Origin: a virus
Reading direction: 5' to 3' (one strand)
Virus genome (UHGV): UHGV-0311442
Length of the DNA stretch: 64,000 nucleotides
Shown here in pieces: positions 9,449 through 62,176 of the stretch; within the stretch, counting starts at the first letter, position 1; the number at the start of each line of letters is the position of its first letter. The notes under the pieces were generated by a model. The model was given only the letters and a program-made list of their open reading frames with translations, was not told the DNA's origin and ran no database searches. Made by a program: the position numbers and the translations under genes.

Positions 9449-9597
9449 CTAAGCCCTCCAGTGGTAGTATGTCTATTACGCAATAACCGAGTTAATCGTA
9501 CGGGTTTACTACTGAGTTTCAAGTTACCGGTAGGCAATGGTGCGGTGGTTTCTATACCCTGAATGTCCGTTTGACCGTGAAATAATTGGAGCAATCA

Positions 9598-10485: not shown

Positions 10486-10506
10486 AAACGACCGGAGTCA
10501 CCTGCA

Positions 10507-26658: not shown

Positions 26659-28785
26659 TTAAATAACTACCCAGCTTTTACCATCGGAGCCAACTTGCAT
26701 TAGCGTAATACTTTCAGTGGTCTCAATGGGTTTGGCAAGACCTTCCGTCCCACCCTTTGGAGTGATGAGAACGTTCGAATTTTGCGGTTTAACGGTGATC
26801 GAACCAGCCTTATTTGCCACGATCTGTATATTTCTACCCACGCTATATTCTAGATCAGGAATAGTAAGTTGGCCGCCACGGTTGGTGGCTGGGAAATACA
26901 CATAAGACGATACATCTTCCTCAGATAACACTATACTACCAGAATCACGATTGACCGAGATCTCAAACTTAGAAATATCGATATCGTAGGCAGTAACTTT
27001 CGTAATATCTGTCAGAACCAATTCGTTCAAATTGGTCTTAGCTGTACTGTTCGCCAGATCAAATGGAGTGCCATTCTTGCCGTCAAGCACAGGCGTGACT
27101 TTGATTTTATTGTCACCCGGATAAATGATTTCAAACGTATGCCAGTTATTATCGTACGCACCAAAAGTTCCTAATTGCACATTCTGCTTTTTATGATGCA
27201 TCAGATAAAGATTCGTACCGTCGGTCTGTAAGAAAAAAGACATTAAGTACGGGTTCGTATCAGCCACACCAGCGTCAGCAAGTGTAGTACCAGAAGGTAG
27301 GTCGGACGCGGAAATACGCCAATAAAGTCCTAATCCGAAACGATCTGCTGCTAAATCACCTTTTAGTCTAAAAGTAACGGTCAGACGTCCACCGTAACGT
27401 ATCATGTCCGCAGCAGATGTCATTGACTTAGTTACATTCCAAGGTTTCATCGTTACAGCCTTTCTTAATTCGACGAAATGCCCGTTTCCATCCTCAGAAT
27501 CTTGCACGGTTACGTTACAATCAACGATATTGTTCCAACCCTGCCCTTTCAGGGAACCATCTCCACGACGTCCGTTATAACCCACAGACTCTACTAATGG
27601 GGTATAGCTTCTTACCACATTCATATTGTCTTTGAGCTCTTTAGTGTCGTTCTTCGTCAGGAGCATTGCACCATTCGCTGTTCTTGATAATATCTCAGCA
27701 GCTATTCTCTCTGAGATAATACCGCGTCGTGCCCAAGAACTGAAATGGCTATTCCTTGTTTCAGACGTCCAGTTTTTATTACTACGGGTGGCAGCACCGT
27801 AGTAGGCAGCACCAGCGATATCAGGATCGTCAGTGGGATCATTAGTCGGTACACGTTGGCCATTATCGTCGTACATGAATGGAACAAAAAAGATATTTTT
27901 TTGTTCATTGTTACGATAATTACCGTATATGGTTTCATATTGAACAGGATATTTTTCCTTCCAATAGTAGGTAGTGTCCCCGCAGATCCATGGTACTTCG
28001 GCGGTGTCGTACTCGGGCATCTGAGAGAGATGGTCAGAGAGATCAGTTCGGAAACGCTCTACCATTGCCATAAATAACGCTGGTTGTTGTGCGTAACCTA
28101 CTTTAGTCAGATCATACTCCCCCTGCATCCACACTACAGCCAAGAGTTTATTTTTAGGATTAACGTCCAGAGCTTTTTTGGTCCGGCTAACTAAATCTTT
28201 ATAAAGAGGTTTTTCCACCCCCCATACCGATGACGTCGCAGAGGCTCCTGTGGCTTCATCGAAGGTACCTTCTGCACCACCCGTGAAAGCAGAACCGCCG
28301 CGTGCGCAGGGTACTAGTAAGATACCAGCGTTGCTAGGAATATACGGGAGAAGACGCTTCGCGATGTGTAGACCTTGACCCACACATCCGTATTCACCTT
28401 TGTCCAAATTGGCTTTGGGGTGCGAGAATACGGACATATCTTGCACGTCGTGCAGACAGTGATCCGCTGGAATGACGTCGTTATACTTACAATCAGCACC
28501 ATTAGGCGTTACCTTCGCACGGCGCGCCATTTGTTTAATCCGCGGATCGGGAGCGTCCAACGTCGCTGGTAAAGGCAATCCTTCACCATAACTCATCGCA
28601 TTAGATTGCCCGGCTATAGGGATCACGAAGTAATAATCCGGTTCCGTCACCCCCCCCCCTTGAAGTTCTGCAATATCAATTTTATATTCTTTTTCTTCCT
28701 TAGAAAGGAGAACTACCGCACCTTTGAGATCGCCAGAGAAATTGTCGAGTTCATGGATACGTTTCTTTCCAATTGGTTGAACCAT
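26659..28785 (-). CDS. Tail fibre / tailspike with N-terminal SASA/SGNH-type carbohydrate O-acetylesterase domain
   Basis: IAGQSNAMSYG (GQSN block of sialate-O-acetylesterase-like esterases) near the N-terminus; ~700 aa; RBS ggagg before ATG 28785 (ORF-track TTG at 28797); G10 tract in codons for QGGGV. Confidence 0.7.
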   Translation of the reverse strand: MVQPIGKKRIHELDNFSGDLKGAVVLLSKEEKEYKIDIAELQGGGVTEPDYYFVIPIAGQSNAMSYGEGLPLPATLDAPDPRIKQMARRAKVTPNGADCKYNDVIPADHCLHDVQDMSVFSHPKANLDKGEYGCVGQGLHIAKRLLPYIPSNAGILLVPCARGGSAFTGGAEGTFDEATGASATSSVWGVEKPLYKDLVSRTKKALDVNPKNKLLAVVWMQGEYDLTKVGYAQQPALFMAMVERFRTDLSDHLSQMPEYDTAEVPWICGDTTYYWKEKYPVQYETIYGNYRNNEQKNIFFVPFMYDDNGQRVPTNDPTDDPDIAGAAYYGAATRSNKNWTSETRNSHFSSWARRGIISERIAAEILSRTANGAMLLTKNDTKELKDNMNVVRSYTPLVESVGYNGRRGDGSLKGQGWNNIVDCNVTVQDSEDGNGHFVELRKAVTMKPWNVTKSMTSAADMIRYGGRLTVTFRLKGDLAADRFGLGLYWRISASDLPSGTTLADAGVADTNPYLMSFFLQTDGTNLYLMHHKKQNVQLGTFGAYDNNWHTFEIIYPGDNKIKVTPVLDGKNGTPFDLANSTAKTNLNELVLTDITKVTAYDIDISKFEISVNRDSGSIVLSEEDVSSYVYFPATNRGGQLTIPDLEYSVGRNIQIVANKAGSITVKPQNSNVLITPKGGTEGLAKPIETTESITLMQVGSDGKSWVVI

Positions 28786-28820
28786 TGTAACCTCCAATTT
28801 TTAAACCAATACTCTTCCGG

Positions 28821-31078: not shown

Positions 31079-32170
31079 TTATAACTTGTTCTCGATTATC
31101 TCCGCCAACTCCTTTATTGCCTCAATAAGTAGAGCTATTTGGGCAGAGTTAGAGACCGTTAAAACGTCCTCACCATTAGCGTCTTTATAAGTAGAAACTG
31201 CTTCAGGTAACACTTTTTGTAAGGTCTGTGCTACAACGCCAGCCTCACGATGAACATTAGTGGATTTAAAGTTCTCCTTTTTGTCGTATATTAAACCTGA
31301 CAATTCCTTTACCTTCTCCAATGCATTAGTTATTGGAGAGAAATTACTTTTCAGCCGGGCGTCAGATCGTATATAAACGTCGTTAAAGTTACCGTTCCCA
31401 CCACAAACCCAAGTACCGTCGTTTTGCAAATAAGCATTGGCATCGGTGCCATTATCAGTACGTGAGTTGTTTATCATGTAAAAGCCGAATTGATAGTTAC
31501 CTAAACCACCAACAAAAAATTTCCTATCAGCATGGTCTTGTCTTAACAATGCCTGAGCAGAACTGGTTCCTACCGGATTAAGACCAAAAATAACGTTATG
31601 GTCTCTCATGCTAATCCAAGAACCTGAGTTGCTGTTAATAGAATATCTATTTGCATAAACCCAAGTATTGGTTCTTATATCTCCGGTAACGTTGAGAGGT
31701 TTATTGCTTTGAACAGCCCCACTCGTAAAGCGTAAAACATGAGCATTATTGGCGTAAACATCTAGAACGCCATCCCCGTTCTGCTTAAAGCCGGTGTCAT
31801 TATCCCCTAAAACTATGGAGTTCCCACCTAAAGCATTGGCGGTTCCAATACCCAATGCTCCATTCAATTGACCGCCAGATAATGGCAACGCCCCAACGTC
31901 GGCAGCAGTTGGCTTGTTTCTCGTATTGTACACGCGACGCCAACCTGGTGAGTAAGTATCGCCGTTAAATACGTAGATAAACTCCGCATTAGTGAGTGCG
32001 CCGGAGACGCTCGTCGTTGTGGCGGTCGTTATACGGATCGTGTAGTTGTTTGTGCTATTGCCATTACTAATCACTTCTATAACGGCCCCAGCTAACGGAA
32101 TAGCCCCCACAACCCGTCTCGCTGTGTGGTATGTGCGCACTAGCGGCATAAGCCCATGCACAGCGAGCAA
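31079..32170 (-). CDS. Tail-fibre distal segment with C-terminal intramolecular-chaperone (peptidase S74-like) domain
   Basis: C-terminus SDARLKSNFSPITNALEKVKELSGLIYDKKE...VSNSAQIALLIEAIKELAEI matches the auto-cleaving chaperone domain of phage fibres and endosialidases; no RBS-supported start; overlaps the upstream fibre ORF by ~100 nt. Confidence 0.65.
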   Translation of the reverse strand: MLAVHGLMPLVRTYHTARRVVGAIPLAGAVIEVISNGNSTNNYTIRITTATTTSVSGALTNAEFIYVFNGDTYSPGWRRVYNTRNKPTAADVGALPLSGGQLNGALGIGTANALGGNSIVLGDNDTGFKQNGDGVLDVYANNAHVLRFTSGAVQSNKPLNVTGDIRTNTWVYANRYSINSNSGSWISMRDHNVIFGLNPVGTSSAQALLRQDHADRKFFVGGLGNYQFGFYMINNSRTDNGTDANAYLQNDGTWVCGGNGNFNDVYIRSDARLKSNFSPITNALEKVKELSGLIYDKKENFKSTNVHREAGVVAQTLQKVLPEAVSTYKDANGEDVLTVSNSAQIALLIEAIKELAEIIENKL

Positions 32171-35100
32171 CCCACGATCTTGTGGTAAATGCGCCGTTAT
32201 TTTTCAATAACGTCACTAGCTGTGCTGTAGTTATTGCAGCGCCATCAGCGCCAGTTTCTAACCAACCACTAGGTGATGCCGGGCAACCTATATCGGCAGG
32301 CCCTAACGATATATTTCTAGTGCCGTCAAATGCGATACCGTTAATGGTACGAGCTGTCTGCAACTTTGTGGCCGTGGCTGCGTTTCCGGTAGTCGACTGA
32401 TTACCAGTCTGGTTTACACCAGGTAAACTGATGTCTTTAGTACCATCAAAAGCCACACCGCCTATATTTCGCGCAGTCTGAAGTTTAGTCGCTGTCGCAG
32501 CATTACCTGACGTATTCTGGTTACCGGCTTGGTTAACCCCCGGTAAATTGATATCCCCAGTACCGTCAAAGGTAACGCCACCTATTCTTCGAGCGGTTTT
32601 CAGTTTCGTCGCGGTAGCGGCATTGCCGGTAGTATCTTGATTACCTGTGGCATTTACGCCAGGAATGCTGTCACGGGCAGTATAAACTTGTGCCCAATCT
32701 GACCACGGTGCATCGTTAGTGTCTCGACGACTACGAATATAAACTGGCGCGTGCGCACCGCTCGTGCCAGACCAACCGATTAACAGTTCACCTTCACCCA
32801 CTGCGGTAGAGCCACCCAAATGCAGCAAGTTACCATAAGCGGTCGGATAACCGTTATTGTAAACTTCGTACATCTGAATACCGGGTGTACCTTTGTTTGA
32901 ACCGGATAGAGCAGTAACCCGACCACGGCCCACCAGGGTGTTGATATTGATGTCAGCAGAACCATCGAATCTCACGCCGTTAATATTTCTGGCAGTTTGA
33001 AGTTTAGTGGCTGTACCAGCATTACCCGTGGTGTTTTGATTACCCTGTTGGTTAACACCTGGGAGGTTAACGTCGCCGCTACCATCGAAGGCGACCCCAC
33101 CAATTCTACGCGCCGTCTTTAATTTAGTGGCGGTTGAAGCGTTGCCTGTTAACTCACCTGCTAACCCTTTTGCAAAGGTCTGTTTTTCTGCCCAGGTGTG
33201 CGAAGCGCTCAATACAGGCATCTGCCGTGGAGTAATAGTACGGTTACCTGGATTACCCGCAAGGCGAACAGCAAAGAATCGATAGTTGGCGGTAGACACT
33301 GTACTACGCCAAACCAACATACTCCGACCTGAGGATGCGCCATCTGATGGACCAACCAGAATGCTAACTAAGTTACCGTCAATAACACCCCAATCCATTC
33401 CCGCAGGAATGTTTTTCATGGTGTTAAGTGGTGTACAGATTAACTCGCCCGGTTTAAAGTCATAGGTTTGCCAGTCTAAAGGATCAACATTCGCGCGTTC
33501 ACCGCCGATACCTAATACCAACGGAAGCGAATACGATGTGAAAACCTCACGCCAGTCACTCCAAGCGTTACCCGTACGGATACGTTGGAATTTACGACCT
33601 TTAGTTTCTGCACCCGTACCGTATGTAGTATAATTCTGTTCGACCCCTGTACCGTCTAAGCGTAAGGTAACTTCACAAACGCCTAATATGGTTTCGCCAG
33701 AAGAACCGGTAAGTGGGCCGTTAGTTGCCTCACCAGTAACACTGAAACGACCCGGTTTAACGAGATCGTTAAAATTGGCTTTAAAGAAAGCACCGTCAGT
33801 CTGATAACCAACCTGAATCCAATCTTCCCATTGTGGGTTTGATGAATCCCACGTTGCAGTCAAACCACGGACATACATTGTACCACGACGCGTAGTGTAT
33901 CGCTGCAACCGTCCGAAAAGACCACCTTCCATTACTTCTAGTACGCCTTGCGCACCACCACCTTCTTCAGGGTAATGTCTGCTAAACACAGCCAGCGAAC
34001 TGCTTGAGTTTCGCCAGTTACCCATATGCTCAGCGCCACCCAGAGAGTTCAAGTCTATAGAGGTAGATAACGGACGTACACCAGTAGTTACCATTCTCCA
34101 CGGTGACCAGGGTCCATTGGCACCATTCCACGCACCTGACAACATACGGTTGTACACGTTACCATTACGACAGGTAAAACGTTGCGCACCGCTATAATTA
34201 CCGGCTTTATACACTTCCAGATAACCGACCGCACCGTCTTCTGGGAAGTGTTTTGCCATCGACGCATTGGTTGATGTCGACTTAGCCCACGTTCCTGTGT
34301 AATTGGCATCTGGAGCAAATGTGTTAATATCAGCATCTACAGGCATTTCGCCACGGAAACGCAGATAGGTATCAGGAGATAGGCCGATGTTTCGAGCAAA
34401 AGTTTCTTTATCTGGGATATCAGCGCCGTTAGAGTTTTTCTGTAACGCACCATTCGCTTTATCTACGGTGGTTCTTAATCCCAAGAAATTGATGATATCC
34501 GCAGTTGACCCTTTCGCTAACAAGGATCTGGCCGTTTCTGTAAAATCCGTTAATCCGACATTATTACTGCCGGTGAAATACATGAGTTTGTTTGCCGCTG
34601 TGGTGACTGCGGCAATAGCGGTGAGTAACGGACTGAGAGGTTGTTTCTGCGCAAGCTCCTCAGTAATCGTTGTTGCGAAGTTAGGGTCATTACCTAACGC
34701 CTCAGCTAATTCCGCTAAGGTATTTAGCGTCTCGGGTGAAGAACCAACCAATTCCGCGATTGCGTCACGCACCCAGGACGTTGTGGAGATACTCGTGTCG
34801 TTCGAGTCCTTCGGCGGTTTTGGGGATGTCGGCTTACCCGTAAAATTCGGCGAATGTTTATTGGCTTTTAACTGTAATTCGTCGTTCAGCTGTTTAACCG
34901 TGGACGGTGTGGCGGCCTCAGTCACAGATTCGCTAGTCAGTGTATTGTTAAGTTTAACAATGCCTTTACCGGTTGTAGTAGCGTCAACTAAACCCTGTGC
35001 AGCGATTTTCTCCGCACGTAGGGCGGCTGATTCCGATCGCGTTGCTGCACCTTCTGAACTTTCCTTATCTTTCGTGACCTGTGCAGCAATCTTCTCCACT

Positions 35101-35639
35101 GCGCCTTTACTGGCCTCAACTGAAGCCGCAGTATTTTCAACGCTGGTAGCCGTCTGTTGAACTTGTCCGGCCTGTTGCGTAACCGTTTCTGCTTTCTTAG
35201 TTACATCAGCCGCTGCAGCCGTCACCGATTGTTCGCTTGTAGCGATAGCTTGAGCTTTCTCATTTACCGACTGTAATACACTATCTACGGCAGTTTTCGC
35301 GGCTAAAACTTCAGCGTGTTTTTTGCTAACCTCAGCAGTTTTAGTGGCAACGGTTCCCGCTTGCTCGCTAACTGTGGAAGCTAACGTGTCAGTTTGTTGC
35401 TTCGCTGTTTCTGCTAAGTCTTTTGCTTGTGTGGCTTCTGTTGCAGACTGTTGCGATTTGGCCGCCGCCGTTTGTGCGTCAGCAACCGCGTTTCTGACGG
35501 TGTCAATATCCGCAACAATCTCGCGGACAGGTAACTGATAATCCCTTTCGTCTTTCGAAAAAAGTAAAACGCCTTCACCGATATCCCCGGTGTATGGACG
35601 TAAATCGTGTAAACGAATTTTCTTTACCGCTTTAGCCAT
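32067..35639 (-). CDS. Long tail fibre protein (1190 aa)
   Basis: N-terminal coiled coil; HSPNFTGKPTSP...TSWVRDAI side-fibre motif; five or more GNAxTATKLxTAR-IGGVxFDGSxDI repeats typical of myovirus tail fibres. Confidence 0.8.
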   Translation of the reverse strand: MAKAVKKIRLHDLRPYTGDIGEGVLLFSKDERDYQLPVREIVADIDTVRNAVADAQTAAAKSQQSATEATQAKDLAETAKQQTDTLASTVSEQAGTVATKTAEVSKKHAEVLAAKTAVDSVLQSVNEKAQAIATSEQSVTAAAADVTKKAETVTQQAGQVQQTATSVENTAASVEASKGAVEKIAAQVTKDKESSEGAATRSESAALRAEKIAAQGLVDATTTGKGIVKLNNTLTSESVTEAATPSTVKQLNDELQLKANKHSPNFTGKPTSPKPPKDSNDTSISTTSWVRDAIAELVGSSPETLNTLAELAEALGNDPNFATTITEELAQKQPLSPLLTAIAAVTTAANKLMYFTGSNNVGLTDFTETARSLLAKGSTADIINFLGLRTTVDKANGALQKNSNGADIPDKETFARNIGLSPDTYLRFRGEMPVDADINTFAPDANYTGTWAKSTSTNASMAKHFPEDGAVGYLEVYKAGNYSGAQRFTCRNGNVYNRMLSGAWNGANGPWSPWRMVTTGVRPLSTSIDLNSLGGAEHMGNWRNSSSSLAVFSRHYPEEGGGAQGVLEVMEGGLFGRLQRYTTRRGTMYVRGLTATWDSSNPQWEDWIQVGYQTDGAFFKANFNDLVKPGRFSVTGEATNGPLTGSSGETILGVCEVTLRLDGTGVEQNYTTYGTGAETKGRKFQRIRTGNAWSDWREVFTSYSLPLVLGIGGERANVDPLDWQTYDFKPGELICTPLNTMKNIPAGMDWGVIDGNLVSILVGPSDGASSGRSMLVWRSTVSTANYRFFAVRLAGNPGNRTITPRQMPVLSASHTWAEKQTFAKGLAGELTGNASTATKLKTARRIGGVAFDGSGDVNLPGVNQQGNQNTTGNAGTATKLQTARNINGVRFDGSADININTLVGRGRVTALSGSNKGTPGIQMYEVYNNGYPTAYGNLLHLGGSTAVGEGELLIGWSGTSGAHAPVYIRSRRDTNDAPWSDWAQVYTARDSIPGVNATGNQDTTGNAATATKLKTARRIGGVTFDGTGDINLPGVNQAGNQNTSGNAATATKLQTARNIGGVAFDGTKDISLPGVNQTGNQSTTGNAATATKLQTARTINGIAFDGTRNISLGPADIGCPASPSGWLETGADGAAITTAQLVTLLKNNGAFTTRSWVARCAWAYAASAHIPHSETGCGGYSVSWGRYRSD

Positions 35640-36489: not shown

Positions 36490-36864
36490 TCAGACCGTTA
36501 GTTCTCCACATAACTCAACGTCGATACCGAACGTCATTCCCACTTCTTGAAGTTTGTTCGCCAGTAGGTGACGATGACAAAACTTACCTGCGGGACAATA
36601 GCACATCAAAACCAAATCTTCGTGTCTAAGCAACGAGACCAACGTTTCGGCATCGGTATCTAACAGTCGTTCGAGTTTGTACAAATACTTTACCGTGTAT
36701 TCACGCTCAGCGGCAGCGTCTTGGGCAGAATTTTTATACGCCATTAGGAAATCCCAGTCGGGGGCGAGTTCCTTTCGCCCTGACTTCACAGTGATATCCA
36801 CTGCGTGAAATCCTTTTTGCTTAGCTAACCGCCACTTAGCGAGTTGTAGCGTCCAGATACGCAT
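36490..36864 (-). CDS. Small conserved hypothetical protein with CYCPAGKFCHR Cys/His motif
   Basis: ORF; motif suggests possible metal binding; family not assigned. Confidence 0.55.
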   Translation of the reverse strand: MRIWTLQLAKWRLAKQKGFHAVDITVKSGRKELAPDWDFLMAYKNSAQDAAAEREYTVKYLYKLERLLDTDAETLVSLLRHEDLVLMCYCPAGKFCHRHLLANKLQEVGMTFGIDVELCGELTV

Positions 36865-37064
36865 TAGGAACGAGTCTGCGATTCAGCCATCAGCGCACAA
36901 CTTTTTACAGCCTGTGCATGAAGCTCTGTACCTGGTGTGTAATCCTTTATACAATCCTGATACAATTCACGTTTTGTTTCTAGAACACGATTATCGTACT
37001 CAGCACTTGCTAGTGCACCTGCGATAAGGATAAAAACTAGAATCGGCAACCAAATTTTCATCAT
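36864..37064 (-). CDS. Small secreted/membrane protein (66 aa)
   Basis: N-terminal hydrophobic signal-like segment MMKIWLPILVFILIAGALASA; paralog of the adjacent 69-aa ORF. Confidence 0.5.
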   Translation of the reverse strand: MMKIWLPILVFILIAGALASAEYDNRVLETKRELYQDCIKDYTPGTELHAQAVKSCALMAESQTRS

Positions 37065-37270
37065 CCATCTCCCATACGTTTAGCGTATTCCGTACACGCC
37101 ATTACTAATTCGGCGTAACGTGGATTATCTACAGTAGTACCTGACATACATTCACGGTAAAGGGTCTCTCTACGTGATTCGTCAGACGTCTTAACGTAGA
37201 ACATCAGCATCGATACAATCAGCGCAGTTGAAACAATTGCCGAGATGATATATCCGTCATTTATTTTCAT
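37061..37270 (-). CDS. Small membrane protein (69 aa)
   Basis: TM segment IISAIVSTALIVSMLMFYV; shares the LY..C...(9-13)...A...AC..A pattern with the neighbour. Confidence 0.5.
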   Translation of the reverse strand: MKINDGYIISAIVSTALIVSMLMFYVKTSDESRRETLYRECMSGTTVDNPRYAELVMACTEYAKRMGDG

Positions 37271-37787
37271 CTATAAAACACCATGGTTCTGGATAAAACT
37301 CTGTAAGTAAATCAACGTAAAAACTATGTAAATTTGTTAGCGTTATAACACGCCCTAACAAATCATGCTCAGTACGGTGATAAATCACTACAGAAGTTTC
37401 TGATACACGTTTAACATGTATATGGCCCACATCTTTAATGCTCTGATACAATCGTCCGAAATCGACCGTACCGACCGCATCAGATGAGTCCGTAACCGAG
37501 TACCGTATACGTGGGGTTTCATTCCCCACCATCGATAAAAATTCCGCTGCTGTTATTGCATAAACCTGCCCTGAAAAGGATAGGTGGGGAATTACCTCTT
37601 TACGTAATGCACTACTTGAAATCTTAGCAAAGACCTGAGTTTCCTTTAGGCGCATTATTTCGCCCAATTTCTTCAAGTCTTTGTTATAATTCAGAAAAGC
37701 AACCACCTTTTCATCGTGCGTAATCGGCGGCCATTCGACCGCCTTTGCCCGACATTGCCTAAACCAACTCACAAGTCGCGCTATCAC
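37257..37787 (-). CDS. Hypothetical protein
   Basis: ORF. Confidence 0.6.
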   Translation of the reverse strand: MIARLVSWFRQCRAKAVEWPPITHDEKVVAFLNYNKDLKKLGEIMRLKETQVFAKISSSALRKEVIPHLSFSGQVYAITAAEFLSMVGNETPRIRYSVTDSSDAVGTVDFGRLYQSIKDVGHIHVKRVSETSVVIYHRTEHDLLGRVITLTNLHSFYVDLLTEFYPEPWCFIDENK

Positions 37788-37789
37788 GT

Positions 37790-38482
37790 TTAGTAATCCT
37801 CTTCCTGATTCACTACCGATTGGATACGGGTTGCGACTTCGTTAGTGTCCAGGTCAGTTTCGTCTACTTTATCCACGAGCTTCTGTACTTTACGTACATG
37901 GGATTCAGTAACATCAAAACGACCACGATCGGCTAACAGCAACGTTACCATATCCTTACGCGAAACCATCAGTTCTTCTTCAGGTAAGTGTAAGGATTTG
38001 TCTAACAGACCCGAATGCATGAAGTTTTCCAGTAAGCGTTCTTCTCCCTGGTCAAAATCATAACGTTCGTTAGGTGCAGCAACAAAAGCGTAACCGAAGT
38101 AGTTTTCTTCCGTCTCACGTAGCGACTTGATGATCTTGTCACCGTGTTGACAGAAATCACTTAACGTGTAGTCGTCAAGCGTTGCCACGATGGTTTCTGC
38201 TTGCACGCCGTTATCTGTTTCGTACAGATGCGCAACCCAGAGTTTCCAGTTACGTGGCTCGTCAAACAAACCACCGATTAACATATCGGTAGCCGCCATG
38301 CGCATACGCGGTGACGTTGTAAACTGGAAACCACGACCTGCGTACGGACCGATAGGACGAATAGAGCTACCGACGAAAGTAATGCGGTTTAACGCATTCT
38401 CAGCAATAGTGTGCGCAGTGCGCTTAGCGGCTGCTTTCGGGTTATACTTTTTGTTACGAGGTTTCTTTTGTTTGGTAGCCAT
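37790..38482 (-). CDS. Hypothetical protein (basic N-terminus)
   Basis: ORF. Confidence 0.6.
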   Translation of the reverse strand: MATKQKKPRNKKYNPKAAAKRTAHTIAENALNRITFVGSSIRPIGPYAGRGFQFTTSPRMRMAATDMLIGGLFDEPRNWKLWVAHLYETDNGVQAETIVATLDDYTLSDFCQHGDKIIKSLRETEENYFGYAFVAAPNERYDFDQGEERLLENFMHSGLLDKSLHLPEEELMVSRKDMVTLLLADRGRFDVTESHVRKVQKLVDKVDETDLDTNEVATRIQSVVNQEEDY

Positions 38483-39863: not shown

Positions 39864-40385
39864 CTACGGGTTAAAAGGCAGCGGTTTGCAATCCCGCTTT
39901 TTCAACTCCTCTACTAACTCAGGTAATGTACACCAACGTTTAAATTGGTTGTTAGCTTTAAAGTGGCTGAGAATCTCCTCAATGCGCTCAATAGACCACT
40001 TCCCTTTCCCTACGTTGTCTAGATCCTTACGTACCGAGAGCGTCTCAATGGTAAACGCTAACTCTGAACTATCCGAGTGGTCGTACAACAATCTTACTGG
40101 TGTTGGTTGGTGTAGCGTAACACGCCACCCTGACTCTTTAGCCCAGTAGACGTCTTTAATTCGACCGCTGACGTCAATTACGGAACTGATATAAGTCCAA
40201 TCACTATCCAGTTTGTTCTTTTCGGCGGTTAATGCATCTTCTAATCGTAAGGAGTTAGGGGACGGAATCCACCAACCGTACTTACCGTAATAATCGTCTA
40301 TTACAGTAATACCTTCGTAATACAAATATTGTGTTTTTGTATTAACGAATATTTCATCGCCAATTAAAACCGCGTTTATCTTCAT
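39864..40385 (-). CDS. Hypothetical protein
   Basis: ORF. Confidence 0.6.
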   Translation of the reverse strand: MKINAVLIGDEIFVNTKTQYLYYEGITVIDDYYGKYGWWIPSPNSLRLEDALTAEKNKLDSDWTYISSVIDVSGRIKDVYWAKESGWRVTLHQPTPVRLLYDHSDSSELAFTIETLSVRKDLDNVGKGKWSIERIEEILSHFKANNQFKRWCTLPELVEELKKRDCKPLPFNP

Positions 40386-40870
40386 CGTAAGTGCTTCCTG
40401 TAAAACAAGTCATAGGCGGTCGAGCTAGATGGATCAATAGAACCTACCAATGGCATAATTTTCTTTTCTGATATTCCAGTTGCCCAAGCAGCTCGCGCAA
40501 AACCTCCGCCAGAACCCGTTGTCCAAACCGCATTTTTATTTATTACAAACGTTTTAAACTTATCTGCTACTAATGTCAGCCAATGTGTTTCTTTAGCCGT
40601 AAAAATGACGATTTGATCGTATATTCGCTCTTTTTCGATAAGATCCGCAAGCAAGGGCTCAACCTTCTTACGTTTATCCTCGTCTAAATATTCTTCTATA
40701 GCAGCGGTAATCGACATTTTCCAAAACTCGGTGTCCAGTACACGTTCACCTGTATAGAAAACAAACTTGTTTTTGTGTTTATGCAGTTTGGGCAATTCTT
40801 TAACCGTACCAGCATAATCCACAAGTCGGTCAGCTAAAATGTAATCCTTTGTTACCAATACCGTTGTCAT
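40382..40870 (-). CDS. HslV-like Ntn-hydrolase (proteasome beta-subunit homolog)
   Basis: RBS gaggtg before ATG 40870 gives N-terminus MTTVLV (Thr at +2 as in HslV MTTIV); C-terminal TGSGGGFARAAWATG matches HslV IGSGGPYAQAAARAL; ORF-track start 40984 reads through the upstream terminator. Confidence 0.55.
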   Translation of the reverse strand: MTTVLVTKDYILADRLVDYAGTVKELPKLHKHKNKFVFYTGERVLDTEFWKMSITAAIEEYLDEDKRKKVEPLLADLIEKERIYDQIVIFTAKETHWLTLVADKFKTFVINKNAVWTTGSGGGFARAAWATGISEKKIMPLVGSIDPSSSTAYDLFYRKHLR

Positions 40871-40897
40871 CACACACCTCGAAGAAAAATAAAAGTA

Positions 40898-40922
40898 CCC
40901 TCTCTCCAGACGGAGAGAGGGG
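40898..40922 (-). terminator. Rho-independent terminator (repeated hairpin, copy 1)
   Basis: ccctctctccagacggagagaggg palindrome with T-run on minus strand; near-identical copy at 41963-41988. Confidence 0.6.
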
Positions 40923-40928
40923 CACTGC

Positions 40929-41198
40929 TTAAATCTTACGGCTGCTACCGTAGCAGCCACAACCTGCTGTCGTTTTCGCAGCACTGACCGGTGCTAACGC
41001 AGCCATCGTACCATCGGCCTTAACAATGTGTAAGTTATTTACGCGAGTCAGACCTTTAAAGGTAATCTTCACACCCTTGCGTAAACTCTTCACATCAAAA
41101 CCGTCGAGTTTGAGTGTTTTAACCTTTTCAGGTTTACCTTCTTCGTAATAGGAAAGAACATTACCTGCACGTTTTTCAACAATATAAATCTTACCCAT
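40929..41198 (-). CDS. Hypothetical protein (89 aa)
   Basis: ORF preceded by the promoter-like motif. Confidence 0.55.
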   Translation of the reverse strand: MGKIYIVEKRAGNVLSYYEEGKPEKVKTLKLDGFDVKSLRKGVKITFKGLTRVNNLHIVKADGTMAALAPVSAAKTTAGCGCYGSSRKI

Positions 41199-42774: not shown

Positions 42775-43548
42775 TTAAAAGATAAAATGGCCAGTTAATG
42801 CTTCTACTTCAACACCAGACATTGCTGGAGGTGCTGAGTATGGAAAAGTAAGACGCACGGTTGCACCCTTTAAATACGCAATACGGCAGTATGCGGTCAA
42901 GAGCGCATTCCCGTAAGTACGGTCGTTATAGAAGAAACCTTCGGTTGCAAACGTCTTTTCGTTGATTTTCGAATAGACTAAAATACCTTCAACTTTACCG
43001 TCTTTACGACAGCACAGCCCTTCGGCAGCCCCAATAGCTAACAATCCCAGGGAGTACGTATCCAAACTGACATTAGCCACCTTAGGAATCGTAAACGTTT
43101 CTTCTAACGTTAGAGATTCAATGTCAACTACATCAGGTAAATCGGTGGGAACTTCGGGTTCTTCAGTAAACGTCAGGTCATAGTCGATAGACGTCGGCTG
43201 CATACCCAAAAACGCCATTAACTGATCACGATGATTTAGGTCATTGGCAGGGTAGGCGACATCAAACATCTCCACATTTAACAACCGTTTGAGTTGTGCG
43301 AAATTGATGTTCTTCTTCGCAAACACAACGATTGCTGACATGTAGAAAATCTTACCGTCAGTGCGGCCGGAGAAGATTCCTTGCAGCTGATTCGTGTTCG
43401 AAAGAATGATAAAGGTCGGATCTTCAGATTCGCGAATGACGTCCTTTTCCAGTAACCCTTTCCGTACACGGGTTAGTGAAACCATTTTCCCGTCCACACC
43501 AATTGCTAAATGGTCATTACGATAATCGTGGATATCCACTATGCGCAT
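42775..43548 (-). CDS. Hypothetical protein
   Basis: ORF. Confidence 0.6.
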   Translation of the reverse strand: MRIVDIHDYRNDHLAIGVDGKMVSLTRVRKGLLEKDVIRESEDPTFIILSNTNQLQGIFSGRTDGKIFYMSAIVVFAKKNINFAQLKRLLNVEMFDVAYPANDLNHRDQLMAFLGMQPTSIDYDLTFTEEPEVPTDLPDVVDIESLTLEETFTIPKVANVSLDTYSLGLLAIGAAEGLCCRKDGKVEGILVYSKINEKTFATEGFFYNDRTYGNALLTAYCRIAYLKGATVRLTFPYSAPPAMSGVEVEALTGHFIF

Positions 43549-44363
43549 TAGAGCACTCCCAGTAATTCAGTCACTGTTTTCCGAGCGGCACCAGACGCAC
43601 CCATATAGCGACCAACTTCAATACTACGCCACTCAAAACCGTAATAAATTTCTCGGGTGAGTAGGGTGTCTGCATTTGACAAAACGACGCTGTTGCCACG
43701 TTCCACCTGCTGCTGTAGTAACTTGGCTAATTCACGATGATCCGTTTGTGAGAATTCTTTACGGTGGTATTGCGCATGTTTCGCGGTATCCGATAACGGA
43801 ATATAAGGAGGATCAGCATAAATCACGGCATCCTCAGGTGTCCGTGCTAATACAGAACGAAAGTCCTCACAAACAATTTCCAGATACTCAACTTCTGCGC
43901 AACGTTTAGCCCAATCCCGAATTTCTTCTAATGGATAATAAACGCCGTTCGGGTAACGTCCAAACGGAACATTGAACCCACCACTACTGTTATAACGACA
44001 CATCCCGTTATAACCGTGACGCATTAAGTATAAAAACATTGCAGCACGTTCAACTTCGGTCATCGTTTTACCGCTATTAAACAGTTCACGACGTTCCATA
44101 TACTTTACAGTGGTATTGCCGTCTAAGAACAACGGTTGCGATGCAGCGATCAGTTCTTCAGGCTGTTCACGCGCAACACAAAGTAAGCGTATCAAATCGG
44201 GGTTAGAATCCGATAGAATATACCGGCTGTAATTCGTATTTAGGAAAACAGACCCTGCGCCCACAAACGGTTCTACAAAGGTTGTACGTTTAGGTAAGAC
44301 CTTTTGTAATTCACCCAAAACGCGCGTTTTCCCACCCATCCATTTAATTATCGGTTTCCGCAT
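43548..44363 (-). CDS. dam: DNA adenine methyltransferase (Dam-type, GATC N6-adenine MTase)
   Basis: VEPFVGAGSVFLNT (SAM binding), LFLYLMRHGYNGMCRYNSSGGFNVPFGRY and catalytic DPPY motifs, co-linear with E. coli Dam. Confidence 0.9.
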   Translation of the reverse strand: MRKPIIKWMGGKTRVLGELQKVLPKRTTFVEPFVGAGSVFLNTNYSRYILSDSNPDLIRLLCVAREQPEELIAASQPLFLDGNTTVKYMERRELFNSGKTMTEVERAAMFLYLMRHGYNGMCRYNSSGGFNVPFGRYPNGVYYPLEEIRDWAKRCAEVEYLEIVCEDFRSVLARTPEDAVIYADPPYIPLSDTAKHAQYHRKEFSQTDHRELAKLLQQQVERGNSVVLSNADTLLTREIYYGFEWRSIEVGRYMGASGAARKTVTELLGVL

Positions 44364-45342
44364 TATATCCGCCTTGTAACGATGACACTTCGTCGACTAA
44401 CACCAATTTGACATGATTTTTCTGACGCTCCCAACTGACGACGTTTTCGTCACGCACTAAAACAAATTCGTATTCGTAGGGGCGGAATTTAAATAATTCG
44501 ACGGCCAGGTGCCTGAATGCAGGGTTGTTATTGAAACACCCTATCTCTAATGGTGCCGCTGTTGTCGATGCAATTTGTAGAGCACGATACAATAAAGTCC
44601 GTCCGATACCACGACCCCGATGTGTCTCACTTACCGCAATGGCTTTTAATTCACATTCGTTAAGATTACGCAATTTAACTTGCACCGCGCCCACAACATC
44701 GTTGCCGTCCATCCAAACGTAGGTGTGGTGGTTGACATGACGTACTAACTCCACCAACGTTTCGACTTGTGGCATGATTTGACGTGAGCGACTCACAGGG
44801 TCAGCGTTGATGTTTTCAACGACACTCGTACCCAAAAGCAACATAAGCTGTTCACGTTGTGCAGCGGTTAGCTCTTTATAAAAATCGCCGGAAATGTTCT
44901 TCACGTTTGTTGGTAGAGCGATATCCAATAACGAGCGTGTACCTAAACGATACGTAGTGTGGGTGTGTCTAAATCCTAAGTCATTAAGCTCAGCGATTTC
45001 TTCTACACCACTGGCGATTCGATTAAGATACGTAAAACCGGTATAGTCGAGTACCAGTAGCAGGTTCAGTTTGTTCAAACAACCCGGTACAATTTCATGC
45101 ATATACAAACAGTGTAACGTTGGGTCGCCGTAAATGTGTTTTGTGATGATAAACCCTTGGATTGTTTTTCCTTTTTGTAAAGAGAACGTATTCAGTTCAC
45201 TATTGCACAACGCCTCACGAATCACCGCGCCGTTAGGGCCCGATAAACATGCCTGAAGTTGAGGGTTGCGAATATCTCTACGTGCTAACCGACCTACTGT
45301 TAAATCCGTGGCGGTATGTTTTATAATCTTCATAAAAGCCAT
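44344..45342 (-). CDS. Protein with C-terminal GNAT acetyltransferase domain
   Basis: HRGRGIGRTLL acetyl-CoA binding motif (R/Q-x-x-G-x-G/A) near the C-terminus. Confidence 0.6.
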   Translation of the reverse strand: MAFMKIIKHTATDLTVGRLARRDIRNPQLQACLSGPNGAVIREALCNSELNTFSLQKGKTIQGFIITKHIYGDPTLHCLYMHEIVPGCLNKLNLLLVLDYTGFTYLNRIASGVEEIAELNDLGFRHTHTTYRLGTRSLLDIALPTNVKNISGDFYKELTAAQREQLMLLLGTSVVENINADPVSRSRQIMPQVETLVELVRHVNHHTYVWMDGNDVVGAVQVKLRNLNECELKAIAVSETHRGRGIGRTLLYRALQIASTTAAPLEIGCFNNNPAFRHLAVELFKFRPYEYEFVLVRDENVVSWERQKNHVKLVLVDEVSSLQGGYNAETDN

Positions 45343-57263: not shown

Positions 57264-59447
57264 TCACTTAGGTAGCTGGTCTAACGTAAACCCTTCGAGA
57301 TCGTTAATTTTCACCTGTTCGTTTAACGCCCAGTCGTCAAGTGAAGACTTGACCTTAACAACCCCGGTGGTCGGTTCATTAATATCCACCACGACTTGCT
57401 GATTCACTCTCACACGGATACCCATGTAAATGTTCATCCGTAGTTTGATGTGTTGCGGCATGGACAACTCTTTAATCACCGGCGCAGCGGGAAGCACTTT
57501 GTCCGTCGTCATGTGTTGATGTCGCGTAACTGACTGTACGCCTAAGAGAGGTTCAATGATGGTAACTGTACCCTCCCCACTCATAGGGATATCCCCTAAG
57601 ATCGGACAAAGCGGGTCCATAACGTCGTAAGAATCTGACCCCATCCGCGCAGCAAAATGTACGGTATACGACGAAAGCTTGGTCATCAATCGAACCATCG
57701 CGCGCTGTATTTCAGATTGCGAAATGGTTGCACGCGTTTCAAGGTTTGTTGCGGTGTTCAATGCATCGACTGCAATATCTTGCCACGTCTCTGCAGAGAC
57801 CAACGTATAGTCTAACCCAAAGGTCTTAAAGAACTCGTCGTAGTTACGATACTTTAACTTTAAATCACAGCGATAATCGCGATAATGGTAATCGAACAGC
57901 ATTAAACCCGCAGCACGATCGGGAATCTTACGGCGGTTTTGGCTGTAACGCCAACGGCGTCGCTTCTGTAAGATAATTTCATTAATCGTATCGTAAAGTT
58001 CGTCGGCACTGAGAATGGTCCCGACTACCTCGGTGTGGGTGTCGGTGTAGTAGTTAATCAGCGCATCGAAACGGTGTTCCCAACTCGGGATAAGATGTTG
58101 TTCCATTTCATCGAAGGGCACCCAACGTTTAATCAACACATCAAAAACGTTAAATACGGGGATTTCTTCAAGGGCAACATCGGAGTAACCTTTATACGCC
58201 GCGTACAAAAACAGTGCCAACAGTTCTTTCGAACTTAACTTTAATGTATCGCCGTTCGTTGGGTTAAGAATCTCGTGGTAGATGTTGTATTTTCCCTTCG
58301 CTACCAAATGTACCCATTCATTAAAGAGGTTATGTGTGTATTCAAAACGCTCAATAGCTTCTGGGTCAACGGCGGTTACTTCTACGAGCTTCGTCGTTAA
58401 GTTAGGATATTGTGTCAGACTCAGTCGCGTGTCTAAGTCTTCTTGGTACTCTGGTTCGTACGCCGGGTTGTTATACGCTAACCCCACCTCTTTTTGGATT
58501 ATGTCCGTAGTGGTAACAATATCCAAATCGCGTCCAGAGTCTTTCTCTGTGTAGTTTAAAGATTGCTGATAACCGATAGGCAACGGTGTTAAGGTTGAAT
58601 CGTCATCATCTTTCGGTTCGTGAATCTGCTGCGCAACATTATACCCAACCGCAGGCATTCCCCAGCCTGTCAGTAGCGCATCGATTTGCCAATCGAAGAT
58701 CTCCTCTTTCCCTGAATTGCGTTCCCAGTATCGAATATTTCGATAAAGAATGAATTTTTGTTTCTGAGTCAGGTACGGCATAAACTCATGCAGTTCCTGG
58801 TGCGAAGCTAAAAATTCGGTAACGAAGAAAGAGTGTGTTTCTGTCGTATGCTGTAAAGAAGAACGAATATAACCAATTATGCCCGGTAGCTGCGGAAACA
58901 ACATGCAGTAGAAAGCTAACACAAACGCATCGTTGTGGACCTTCCAACCCTCAGCCATGTACCGGACGTGGGCTGCACGAATTCTCGCTTCCAGTCGGCT
59001 AATCAATGACGTCTCTTGTGATTCTACTAACGAACTGTCGTAGTACAAAATAGAACAATCGTCTACACGTAACGCGTAATTTAAATCGATTGGCGTAAAG
59101 ACGCCGCGAATATAAACCGCGTATTCGGGATAAGTTGCGATCAACGCCTCGATATACTCGACATTCGAACGAAAAACGTTAGAGGTCTTTTTATGACGGG
59201 ACAGGTTGGCTGTCGTTAATTCTATCTGCTCTTGCGTGTCGAGCGACGTGATGTAAATGGGTTTATCCATTTCGTGACGTTGTCCTGCTAAATGCAGGTA
59301 GTATCGCCACGTACTACGGTTATCGGAAACGAAACCGCCGTTCTCGGTTATTGCCAGATTCATCTGTTGTGCGATTGATTCTGATTTAATAATCAGCGAT
59401 TTCGCCAACGCGATGTTCTGATCACGAAATATGTTAAATCTCTGCAT
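57264..59447 (-). CDS. Hypothetical large protein (~727 aa), possibly virion structural
   Basis: ATG at 59447 (ORF-track TTG at 59459); 11 nt from the divergent plus-strand gene. Confidence 0.65.
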   Translation of the reverse strand: MQRFNIFRDQNIALAKSLIIKSESIAQQMNLAITENGGFVSDNRSTWRYYLHLAGQRHEMDKPIYITSLDTQEQIELTTANLSRHKKTSNVFRSNVEYIEALIATYPEYAVYIRGVFTPIDLNYALRVDDCSILYYDSSLVESQETSLISRLEARIRAAHVRYMAEGWKVHNDAFVLAFYCMLFPQLPGIIGYIRSSLQHTTETHSFFVTEFLASHQELHEFMPYLTQKQKFILYRNIRYWERNSGKEEIFDWQIDALLTGWGMPAVGYNVAQQIHEPKDDDDSTLTPLPIGYQQSLNYTEKDSGRDLDIVTTTDIIQKEVGLAYNNPAYEPEYQEDLDTRLSLTQYPNLTTKLVEVTAVDPEAIERFEYTHNLFNEWVHLVAKGKYNIYHEILNPTNGDTLKLSSKELLALFLYAAYKGYSDVALEEIPVFNVFDVLIKRWVPFDEMEQHLIPSWEHRFDALINYYTDTHTEVVGTILSADELYDTINEIILQKRRRWRYSQNRRKIPDRAAGLMLFDYHYRDYRCDLKLKYRNYDEFFKTFGLDYTLVSAETWQDIAVDALNTATNLETRATISQSEIQRAMVRLMTKLSSYTVHFAARMGSDSYDVMDPLCPILGDIPMSGEGTVTIIEPLLGVQSVTRHQHMTTDKVLPAAPVIKELSMPQHIKLRMNIYMGIRVRVNQQVVVDINEPTTGVVKVKSSLDDWALNEQVKINDLEGFTLDQLPK

Positions 59448-59458
59448 CGGAGACCCCA

Positions 59459-62176
59459 ATGGACGATATTAGTAAATTAACGGGCGACCCCGCCGTAGCT
59501 GCAATTCTTCGTAAAACTACGGGCCCAGCACCCCAGCAACAACGCGGTACGCGTAGCGAGGGTGGTTCTACGCCAACACGTCAGGAACTTGCAGGAATTG
59601 TAAGTTCGCGTATTCGTACTATCAAAAATGCGGAACGTATCTTTGATGCGTTACCTGAACTCGAAACGATTGTTACCATTGCAACTTCGAGCTTGCTGTC
59701 GACAAAAGACTTAATCAACACCACGTTGATTTACGACAACATCGCAGACATTCCAATTGACTTACGCAATGACCTACTGACACCAACGCGTGATTATCAT
59801 GATAACGTACGTCAATTACCTAAGAAATTATATCAGTGGATTTACGACGCGTTAAAAACAAAAGGCGCAAGTCCAGTGATGATAATCTCGGACAACGGAT
59901 TTGACCAGTTGTTCGGTTTAGACGCCAAAGTCGCTACCGAGTCCGTACGTCGTTCTCAAGCTGCCTTTTTCGAAGACCAGCTCGGTATTCTCGGCCCAAT
60001 CAACGGGCAAGAAGACGGGCAACGCGTAGGTGTGGAATCTATACTGAGTCGTGTTCGTGGCCCTGTTAAAGGACCACAGTCGCTGAAAATCAATTTCAGT
60101 AACCACGATAAGATGTTCTCAGATAAGTTCGAAATGGACATCTCGATCACCGACAACCCACGTATCACGTTACTACCCCATGCTTATCGTCGAATCGCTC
60201 ATGAGAACGCACGTACTGGTCTCTACGGCCAATTAGAGCAAGCCGCATATGAAAAGCCTGCCACACCGACAGGTGCTACGCCGTATGAAGTTAATCAACA
60301 GTTTAACGATCGTCAGCGTGACGCGGCTGAAAAAGGCTTCATTAACTTAGGCGATCTGAACGAAGCGTACAAAGGTACACCAAAAACTCAGACTTATGGT
60401 GATATTCCGATTATTTCGATGAATGAAAACAACCAAATCGAATATTTCGAATGTCTATTGCCTGCTGAGTCTACCGCACCGTTGGTTATCGGCGACGACG
60501 TTCGTAACCCTATTGGGTTTCTGACCATTATTGACGATATGGGTAACTTCATCAACTCACGTTCTTCACTTTACGGGGACGCGAACTTTATGAACTACCT
60601 TAATAACGATGGCATGACGGACAGTATTATCAACCGCTCTAATTTAGGTTTGGGTAATACCTCTCGTATAACGCCAGAGATCGCCAACCGTTTAAGTGCC
60701 CGTTGTAGCGAGATTGCTGAGAACGAATTTACCCGTGCGTTAAGCCAGGCATTGGGTGGAGCTGAAATCAGCATGAAAATTACCGAAACTTTCGGTCGTA
60801 TTCTGCTGGCACGTCACCTCGCAAAACGTCACACACAGGTTGTCTATATCCCGGCTAATAACTTGTGCTACTTTGCAACGGACTTTAACGAAGATGGTAT
60901 TGGGGTGTCTATCACCGAACGTTCCTTTATCATCTCTACGGTCAGGATGGCACTGTTGTTCGCAACGATGAACTCCTCAGTGTTGAACTCAGCACGTCAC
61001 ATGCAATACGACATTGAGTTATCGCCAGACGATATGAACGGTCAGAAAACGGTTGACCAAGTTAAATCAGATATTCTCAACTCCTATAACCGTCGTTTAC
61101 CGATGTGGGGTGATATCAATGACGCTTGGTCAATGGGGGCTAATGCCGGGATTGCATTTAACGTGACGGGTAACGAATACTACGCCAGTCATAAAGTGTC
61201 GGTTTCGGACACAACGCCTGAGTATAAAGTGCCCGATCAACAAATCGATGAAAACTTACTCCGTCGTACTTGTCACATCGCGTGTGTAGACCCGGATCTT
61301 GTTTTGACGCCGGAAAACCTGGAATTTGCTTCACAGATTTATTCCAAGTCACTGCTGGTGACTCAGCAAATCGTGAAAAAACAAGAAATTCTGTCTACGC
61401 CGTTAACACGCTACGTGACAAACAGTTTGCAAGCCTCTCCTAAGTTACAAGCAGAGCTGATTCGTGTTATCGTTGAATATATTCGCAATCAAAATCCTAA
61501 TGTAACAGGTGAAGACTTGACCAAACAAACGTCAGAGTATCTGGCGAAGTTCATCAATGGCATGAAGGTCACCTTACCACCACCAGACACATCAGCTTCT
61601 TCTTCACAAGCGGATCTGTTTGATAAACGCTATGAGTTCATTGAGAAACTGGCGGATCTGGTTGTTACCGACGATATTTCGAATATGCTTCAGAATGAAG
61701 GTATCGAAATGCAGCCTGATGATCTCAAGACGATGATTAAATCGTTCTATACGCGTAACTGGCTACGCAATCAGGGCATCGAAACCGATCTGTTTGATTT
61801 GATCTACGACGAAGATAAGCGTGGTGAAAACGTCAAGATGATTTCTGATGAAATCGCAGCAGCATCGAAGACGCTGATTCAGTTAGCTAAGCGAACAACA
61901 GGTAAAGTTGAAACCTTAGCAAAAGCGGCTGATTTGAATCCTGAGGACGCCAATAGCTTCGGCGGGGGTAGCGACTTCGGTGGCGGCTCTGAAGACGACG
62001 GTGGCTTAGGGGGCGATGAGGACTTAGGTGGCGACGATATGGGCGGTGATGAAGACTTGGACATGTCTGATGATGAAACGACGGAAACCGATACGACAAC
62101 GGAAGAAGACGTTTCTGCTGAAGACACAGACGAGACGGATACCGGTACAGACGACAACGCCGACGAAACTCTCTAA
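59459..62176 (+). CDS. Large protein (905 aa) with poly-acidic Gly/Asp/Glu/Thr C-terminal tail
   Basis: Long ORF; last ~90 aa are GGGSDFGGGSEDDGGLGGDEDLGGDDMGGDEDLDMSDDETTETDTTTEEDVSAEDTDETD; bidirectional terminator follows. Confidence 0.75.
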   Translation: MDDISKLTGDPAVAAILRKTTGPAPQQQRGTRSEGGSTPTRQELAGIVSSRIRTIKNAERIFDALPELETIVTIATSSLLSTKDLINTTLIYDNIADIPIDLRNDLLTPTRDYHDNVRQLPKKLYQWIYDALKTKGASPVMIISDNGFDQLFGLDAKVATESVRRSQAAFFEDQLGILGPINGQEDGQRVGVESILSRVRGPVKGPQSLKINFSNHDKMFSDKFEMDISITDNPRITLLPHAYRRIAHENARTGLYGQLEQAAYEKPATPTGATPYEVNQQFNDRQRDAAEKGFINLGDLNEAYKGTPKTQTYGDIPIISMNENNQIEYFECLLPAESTAPLVIGDDVRNPIGFLTIIDDMGNFINSRSSLYGDANFMNYLNNDGMTDSIINRSNLGLGNTSRITPEIANRLSARCSEIAENEFTRALSQALGGAEISMKITETFGRILLARHLAKRHTQVVYIPANNLCYFATDFNEDGIGVSITERSFIISTVRMALLFATMNSSVLNSARHMQYDIELSPDDMNGQKTVDQVKSDILNSYNRRLPMWGDINDAWSMGANAGIAFNVTGNEYYASHKVSVSDTTPEYKVPDQQIDENLLRRTCHIACVDPDLVLTPENLEFASQIYSKSLLVTQQIVKKQEILSTPLTRYVTNSLQASPKLQAELIRVIVEYIRNQNPNVTGEDLTKQTSEYLAKFINGMKVTLPPPDTSASSSQADLFDKRYEFIEKLADLVVTDDISNMLQNEGIEMQPDDLKTMIKSFYTRNWLRNQGIETDLFDLIYDEDKRGENVKMISDEIAAASKTLIQLAKRTTGKVETLAKAADLNPEDANSFGGGSDFGGGSEDDGGLGGDEDLGGDDMGGDEDLDMSDDETTETDTTTEEDVSAEDTDETDTGTDDNADETL

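Follow-up and report, generated by a model that had tools for sequence, protein, structure and literature searches.

In the bacterial HslVU system, HslU is encoded alongside HslV, and E. coli HslV on its own, without HslU, is a very poor peptidase. Removal of the initiator Met ahead of Thr follows the penultimate-residue rule and occurs in E. coli HslV. Enterobacteriaceae carry hslVU. To our knowledge, no function has been demonstrated for any of the proteasome-like genes of phages, and our literature search turned up no functional work on HslV-like proteins of phages. Genes of the proteasome-like type are frequent in phages, with 35 viral structure clusters in BFVD sharing the proteasome fold at an E value of <1e-3, most of them labeled "uncharacterized," and several groups were named in 2021 (PMC8665760), including the phage-borne proteasome homologs PPH, AAH, and CPH described by Fuchs, Alva, and Lupas. 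Two HslV genes have been reported from the single genome of phage pSal-SNUABM-04 (PMC7823757), and the HslU-like protein gp116 of Erwinia phage RAY is reported to localize to the phage nucleus (bioRxiv 10.1101/2023.02.24.529968). Relatives of the protein described here are already annotated as "peptidase HslV family" in Erwinia jumbo phages.

The window, a stretch of 64,000 nucleotides from virus genome UHGV-0311442, derives from a phiKZ-like jumbo phage. Its closest nucleotide matches, in SPN3US-like Salmonella phages and in Erwinia jumbo phages, were short stretches with approximately 73% identity, and no close relative of the lineage was found in the GenBank phage collection. The stretch most conserved at the nucleotide level (9586..12736, plus strand) comprises a radical SAM gene pair and its neighbors and is 72.6% identical to SPN3US-like Salmonella phages of the SPFM series. 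The lineage itself is represented by contigs of approximately 222 to 226 kb in metagenomes and in Salmonella enterica assemblies (Javiana, Dublin, and Enteritidis), as well as by a circular record, "plasmid unnamed1" of Enterobacter ludwigii 51A:C (NZ_CP134650.1; 222,441 bp), which is 84.5% identical to the window over the locus. This is the only annotated record of the lineage, and its HslV-like protein is listed as a "hypothetical protein." The plasmid record and the contigs from Salmonella isolates suggest a carrier state, pseudolysogeny, or a phage carried along in cultures.

Genes near the HslV-like gene encode a phiKZ_IP-type protein, a GNAT acetyltransferase, a Dam methylase, a thymidylate kinase, and tail fibers. 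The gene order is shared with Erwinia phages and runs from the GNAT (44344..45342) and Dam (43548..44363) genes through small genes to the HslV-like gene and a gene encoding a 173-amino-acid (aa) protein; further downstream, small genes are followed by homologs of Phobos gp125 and gp132. The tail fiber gene (31079..35639, minus strand) is split into open reading frames (ORFs) of 1,190 and 363 aa that overlap by approximately 100 nt. A near-identical contig (L021) encodes an intact tail fiber of 1,559 aa, which aligns with the window at 35639..32106 (frame -3) and then at 32110..31082 (frame -1); a frameshift or sequencing error near positions 32106 to 32110 is therefore indicated. Downstream of the tail fiber genes, a 712-aa protein (26659..28797, minus strand) with a SASA-type carbohydrate esterase domain and DUF6645 (phrog_143) is probably a receptor-modifying tail spike enzyme.

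The HslV-like gene occupies positions 40382..40870 on the minus strand and encodes a protein of 162 aa with the N terminus MTTVLVTKDY. A Shine-Dalgarno sequence, GAGGT (40880..40876, minus strand), is located 5 nt before the ATG (40870..40868). The mechanically called ORF starts at a GTG at position 40984 and is 200 aa long; the 38 residues added in this way overlap the upstream gene (40929..41198) and cross an intrinsic terminator-like hairpin, CCCTCTCTCC-GTCT-GGAGAGAGGG followed by a T-tract (40888..40921, minus strand). The stem-loop (40921..40898) comprises 10 bp, 7 of which are G-C, and lies on the same strand as the HslV-like gene. Within a collection of 5.8 billion proteins, all 45 full-length homologs belonging to this lineage were exactly 162 aa long, and the start supported by the Shine-Dalgarno sequence agrees with this homolog length. 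The short start, Thr2, and the GSGGGFARAA block are therefore as described in the sequence-only reading of this DNA, which began the protein at MTTVLV and regarded the 38 extra residues as reading through a terminator.

The HslV-like gene follows directly after this terminator within a long minus-strand block, which is flanked by nucleotide metabolism and DNA modification genes on one side and by tail fiber genes on the other. The upstream gene (40929..41198, minus strand; phrog_12339) encodes an 89-aa product, the N-terminal part of which has a counterpart in pEa_SNUABM_43, and it ends before the terminator. No sigma-70-like promoter was found between the terminator and the HslV-like start.

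Single-sequence searches were nearly blind to the relationship with HslV. The window protein scored below all curated family thresholds (Pfam PF00227 and NCBIfam HslV): the Pfam search returned no PF00227 match and only a spurious DUF2863 hit (E value of 0.1), the NCBIfam search returned neither HslV (TIGR03692) nor any other relevant family, and phmmer against the PDB gave no match. Likewise, a megablast search of the phage collection with the locus gave no match, and when a 20-sequence alignment was compared by hhalign with E. coli HslV as a lone sequence, nothing beyond the GSGG block was aligned (probability of 6.5%). Matches were obtained to phrog_23394 ("unknown function"; E value of 2.7e-10, residues 1 to 162) and phrog_1040 ("peptidase HslV family"; E value of 1.2e-5, residues 1 to 158). 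In GenBank phages, tblastn detected full-length homologs with 25 to 30% identity in 17 jumbo phage records, 16 of which are Erwinia phages (including Phobos, EarlPhillipIV, Derbicus, Machina, Huxley, and Parshik), the other being Salmonella phage pSal-SNUABM-04. Three of these 17 records carry the label "peptidase HslV family," and one carries the label "putative HslV-like ATP-dependent protease." By sequence, the window protein can be assigned to the phage-specific family phrog_23394, whose members in Erwinia phages are already annotated as HslV-like.

Homology to HslV becomes clear through a family profile and a structure model. When 1.84 billion cluster representatives were searched exhaustively with a profile, 112 related clusters were recovered (E value of ≤1e-3), with members mostly 130 to 210 aa long. 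A profile built from 63 family sequences and searched against the PDB matched 14 distinct HslV sequences with E values of 5e-11 to 4.5e-4, while beta subunits of the 20S proteasome ranked after HslV; the Pfam Proteasome model (PF00227) was reached by only 2 of the 63 members. The AlphaFold2 model based on 20 homologs (pLDDT of 87.4, pTM of 0.84) displays the strand order and the two helix pairs of the proteasome fold, including H1 (residues 48 to 62) and H2 (residues 67 to 79), and thus the alpha-beta-beta-alpha arrangement of proteasome-type Ntn hydrolases. Foldseek against the PDB placed HslV of Trypanosoma brucei, E. coli, and Haemophilus influenzae among the top eight matches, amid 20S beta subunits, with an identity to HslV of approximately 18% in the structure matches. 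The likeness to HslV is far beyond chance. Both the profile and the Foldseek matches bear out the original suggestion of an HslV-like, proteasome-type Ntn hydrolase, and on the strength of profile, predicted fold, and residue alignment, the gene product is very probably a divergent member of the HslV/proteasome beta branch of this superfamily.

The residues expected of an active enzyme could be traced with the same profile. Profile-guided alignment paired T1, D17, K33, and S124 of E. coli HslV with T2, D14, K28, and S120 of the window protein, and a HMMER alignment with HslV of T. brucei independently produced the same correspondence. The G119-S120-G121-G122 segment aligned to G-S124-G-G of HslV, in agreement with the proposal that the GSGG block lies close to its HslV position (GSGGGFARAA at residues 119 to 128 compared to GSGGPYAQAA in E. 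coli HslV). Across 110 family sequences, position 2 was occupied by Thr in 96 and by Ser in 12 (108/110), position 14 by Asp in 109, and position 28 by Lys in 106. Gly was invariant at positions 119 and 121 (110/110 each), and Ser or Thr was found at position 120 in 104 sequences; conservation was also seen for Asp at position 146 (95/110) and for Ser or Thr at position 149 (89/110). The putative catalytic set thus comprises T2 (Thr1 after Met removal), D14, K28, G119-S120-G121, D146, and S149.

Two of the three HslV residues singled out in the sequence-only reading, Thr1 and Lys33, accordingly have conserved counterparts, and the MTT start would provide an N-terminal Thr once Met is removed, as is to be expected. 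The third, Gly45, was not recovered. The residue aligned to this Gly of the oxyanion hole (Gly45 in HslV, Gly47 in the 20S proteasome) is Tyr39, in a strand where the alignment is less certain. The corresponding column contains Gly in 42, Ala in 41, Phe in 9, and Tyr in 3 of the 110 sequences; Gly or Ala is thus present in 83 family members, while the closest subfamilies have Tyr or Phe. Tyr at this position could impair or alter catalysis. As the oxyanion hole of the 20S proteasome uses a backbone NH, Tyr39 need not abolish catalysis, but it remains a real departure from HslV.

The gene immediately downstream (39864..40385, minus strand; phrog_25529) encodes the 173-aa protein, and its start codon shares an ATGA (40385..40382) with the stop codon of the HslV-like gene. 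A gene encoding 173 to 182 aa adjoins the HslV-like gene in all 21 loci carrying the latter and is its only invariant genomic partner. Profile searches of the 173-aa protein against Pfam and the PDB gave no match, and a single-sequence structure prediction was unusable (pLDDT of 36.5). The 173-aa protein is probably a partner, regulator, or substrate of the HslV-like protein.

Most of the HslV-like homologs in Erwinia jumbo phages are located only a few genes away from an HslU-like ATPase gene of the phage. In several relatives, a gene for an AAA+ HslU-like ATPase of 578 to 730 aa is located 2.5 to 3 kb downstream of the HslV-like gene. This arrangement was found in Phobos, Derbicus, CR5, pEa_SNUABM_43, Huxley, and two metagenomic phages (L024 and L111). 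The best NCBIfam match of the phage HslU-like protein was TIGR00390 hslU (E value of 3.8e-62), ahead of ClpX. Comparison of four loci (L001:8832-10880, L002:8965-10701, L024:10001-12193, and L020:10001-12193) showed that phage HslU-like proteins are 578 to 742 aa long and that a long insert of low conservation lies between a conserved N-terminal and a conserved C-terminal AAA+ part. This insert is presumably much longer than the I-domain of bacterial HslU. Several phages bearing an HslU-like gene have no HslV-like gene in the 4 to 6 kb to either side of the HslU-like gene.

In the relatives, the HslU-like gene and a gene encoding 314 to 341 aa share a slot between gp125-like and DUF488-N3a genes. 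The corresponding slot in the window (36865..37789, minus strand) is flanked by homologs of Phobos gp125 (37790..38482) and gp132 (36490..36864) and contains only a 176-aa ORF (37257..37787) together with noncoding or small-ORF sequence. No similarity of this ORF to either the HslU-like ATPase or the 314- to 341-aa gene product was detected, which argues for replacement rather than decay in place.

By tblastn and hidden Markov model searches, the HslU-like gene was absent from the window and from seven other loci of the lineage with 10-kb flanks. The absence was settled on the complete 222-kb E. ludwigii element: tblastn for HslU-like proteins across its 222,441 bp returned nothing significant, and a profile of 11 phage HslU-like proteins, searched against the whole of NZ_CP134650.1, returned none at an E value of ≤1. 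In scans of IMG/VR for HslU-like proteins, contigs of this lineage were not among the matches listed. Two HslU-like proteins on contigs of approximately 225 kb (P0208 and P0199) were considered as the lineage's own and proved to belong to other phages, and a 731-aa ORF of the window (57264..59459, minus strand, TTG start) equals P0208 in length yet is unrelated to it. This lineage has thus lost the phage HslU-like unfoldase that its relatives carry. An HslU-like gene is likewise absent from the vicinity in a further lineage (L110). The HslU-like gene is therefore dispensable in at least two lineages, and the 173-aa neighbor in none. Within the HslU-less lineage, pairwise dN/dS values for the HslV-like gene were about 0.1, with a range of 0.05 to 0.34; the gene is under purifying selection.

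As it is the HslU-like gene that is dispensable and the neighbor that is always retained, we favor a two-gene module, consisting of a Thr1 Ntn peptidase and a translationally coupled 173-aa protein, that operates with no phage-encoded unfoldase. As a whole, we would give this reading an even chance. Cleavage of Met1 by host methionine aminopeptidase would leave Thr in place as the N-terminal nucleophile. The roles of Asp17 and Lys33 would then fall to Asp14 and Lys28, while the G119-S-G121 loop together with D146 and S149 would act in roles of the Ser129(124)/Asp166/Ser169 type. By analogy with HslV, the protein most likely assembles into rings that enclose the active sites and cleaves peptides or unfolded proteins during infection, and in this lineage it would do so independently of any phage-encoded ATPase. 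A bolder version holds that a Thr peptidase with an altered oxyanion hole and its obligate, coupled partner of 173 to 182 aa, either free of any AAA+ protein or capturing host HslU, make up a two-component proteolytic module of a new kind and degrade specific host proteins, such as defense or stress response factors, in the course of jumbo phage infection; we consider it rather unlikely in this specific form.

Given how poorly HslV performs without HslU, an unfoldase-less relative may need another activator, which could include host HslU. The phage peptidase would in this case dock onto the HslU hexamer of its Salmonella or Enterobacter host in place of the lost phage HslU-like protein, so that a redirected unfoldase feeds substrates into a phage-encoded proteolytic chamber. 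All hosts of the lineage are Enterobacteriaceae, the peptidase gene was kept under purifying selection when the HslU-like gene was lost, and HslV is the closest relative of the family among solved structures. In addition, the pore-loop region aligned to residues 86 to 91 of HslV is as short as in HslV, a feature interpreted as typical of unfoldase-gated forms (PMC8665760). However, at approximately 18% identity to HslV, the residues that dock the C-terminal tail of HslU cannot be reliably aligned. Moreover, the phage HslU-like proteins end in ...LRKSLRG or ...LRKN, which we take to be unlike the C terminus of host HslU; the ancestral docking surface therefore need not fit the host protein. The L110 lineage, which also has no HslU-like gene nearby, is a further point against this explanation, and we judge it to be unlikely.

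A second proteasome/HslV-like paralog is encoded in NZ_CP134650.1 at 88426..88926 (L106:38426-38926). This 166-aa protein was found only with the family profile (E value of 8e-11) and was missed both by pairwise BLASTP comparison with the window protein and by a phmmer search of the PDB. It has more canonical motifs (MTTIVFDG, CDGQ, K, GLAG, GSG, and YDLYSGG, corresponding to D-x-x-SGG), and its homologs occur in 67 phage records, often labeled "peptidase HslV family," from SPN3US-like phages, phage EL, phiEaH2, and some phages of 40 to 50 kb. The 64-kb window contains one paralog only. The presence of a second paralog in the complete relative matches the two HslV genes reported for pSal-SNUABM-04 (PMC7823757), and both observations would fit a heteromeric, proteasome-like phage particle that combines the window-type subunit with the second paralog. 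However, the two genes lie approximately 93 kb apart in separate transcription units, the second paralog often occurs without the window-type one (67 compared to 17 records), and each paralog retains its own catalytic residues, so that homo-oligomers are possible. We therefore regard a mixed particle as improbable.

A nonproteolytic Ntn enzyme is similarly doubtful. Possibilities include a protein ligase or a transpeptidase of the connectase kind and an amidase directed at a small molecule or at one particular partner, for instance the 173-aa neighbor. However, the model contains H1 and H2 and no extra domain and does not match connectase, which is monomeric and which lacks the first helix pair and carries an additional C-terminal domain (PMC8665760). 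The profiles match HslV and 20S beta subunits rather than connectase, and the association with an HslU-like unfoldase gene in relatives is in keeping with proteolysis. Finally, a decoy devoid of catalytic activity that sequesters host HslU or some other host factor would suit the Tyr in the oxyanion hole, the loss of the phage unfoldase, and the failure to match any curated HslV model, but it is highly improbable, as a side chain change need not disable a hole formed by a backbone NH and as the retention of Thr/Ser, Asp, Lys, and GSG in 104 to 110 of 110 diverse members, this lineage included, would be unexpected for a pseudoenzyme.

The lineage provides a natural experiment: relatives pair the putative peptidase with an HslU-like unfoldase, while this lineage keeps only the peptidase and its partner. 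Whether the phage peptidase needs an unfoldase, and what role the invariant neighbor plays, thereby become testable questions. In practical terms, the gain is modest: a better annotation for a protein listed as "hypothetical" in RefSeq and a well-defined candidate for work on phage-directed proteolysis.

HslV (ClpQ; MEROPS T1 subfamily B; TIGR03692; PRK05456; PF00227) is among the closest known systems. Judged from sequence, the window protein appears to be HslV-like but not an HslV ortholog: its identity of approximately 18% leaves it below the curated cutoffs, Gly45 is replaced by Tyr, and the linkage to HslU is missing. The C-terminal D146-P-S-S149, which we take to resemble the active-site pattern of 20S beta subunits (D166-x-x-S169), is closer to that pattern than to HslV. 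Unlike the HslVU system, this lineage has no HslU-like gene, although related phages do, and its obligate 173-aa neighbor has no counterpart in hslVU operons.

With PPH, AAH, and CPH, the window protein shares a compact group I architecture without propeptide, occurrence in tailed phages, residues equivalent to Thr1, Asp17, and Lys33, and the lack of a known unfoldase (PMC8665760). By description, PPH are set apart, with approximately 140 aa and no helix H2 (PMC8665760), while the window protein has 162 aa and both H1 and H2. Weaker matches of the family profile were to proteins of 132 to 160 aa aligned in two stretches, as expected for PPH-like proteins, in which one helix is missing. BPH (beta-proteobacteria proteasome homologue), which can be listed with Anbu among the closest known systems, differ in that the profile prefers HslV (E values of 5e-11 to 4.5e-4) over BPH (E value of 0.77) and in their long, acidic pore loop (PMC8665760), as the aligned loop of the window protein is as short as that of HslV.

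Close relatives are also found in the jumbo phage members of phrog_23394, including Phobos gp123, the proteins of EarlPhillipIV and Derbicus, and ORF125 of pEa_SNUABM_43, which are full-length homologs at 25 to 30% identity. They share with the window the synteny of GNAT, Dam methylase, small genes, and the 173- to 182-aa neighbor, and the same residues are invariant in them. The HslU-like ATPase gene situated 2.5 to 3 kb downstream in those phages is absent in this lineage. Beyond the existing annotation of its relatives, this locus is therefore distinguished by the loss of the HslU-like gene in the lineage, the invariant coupled neighbor, and the Tyr at the Gly45 position.
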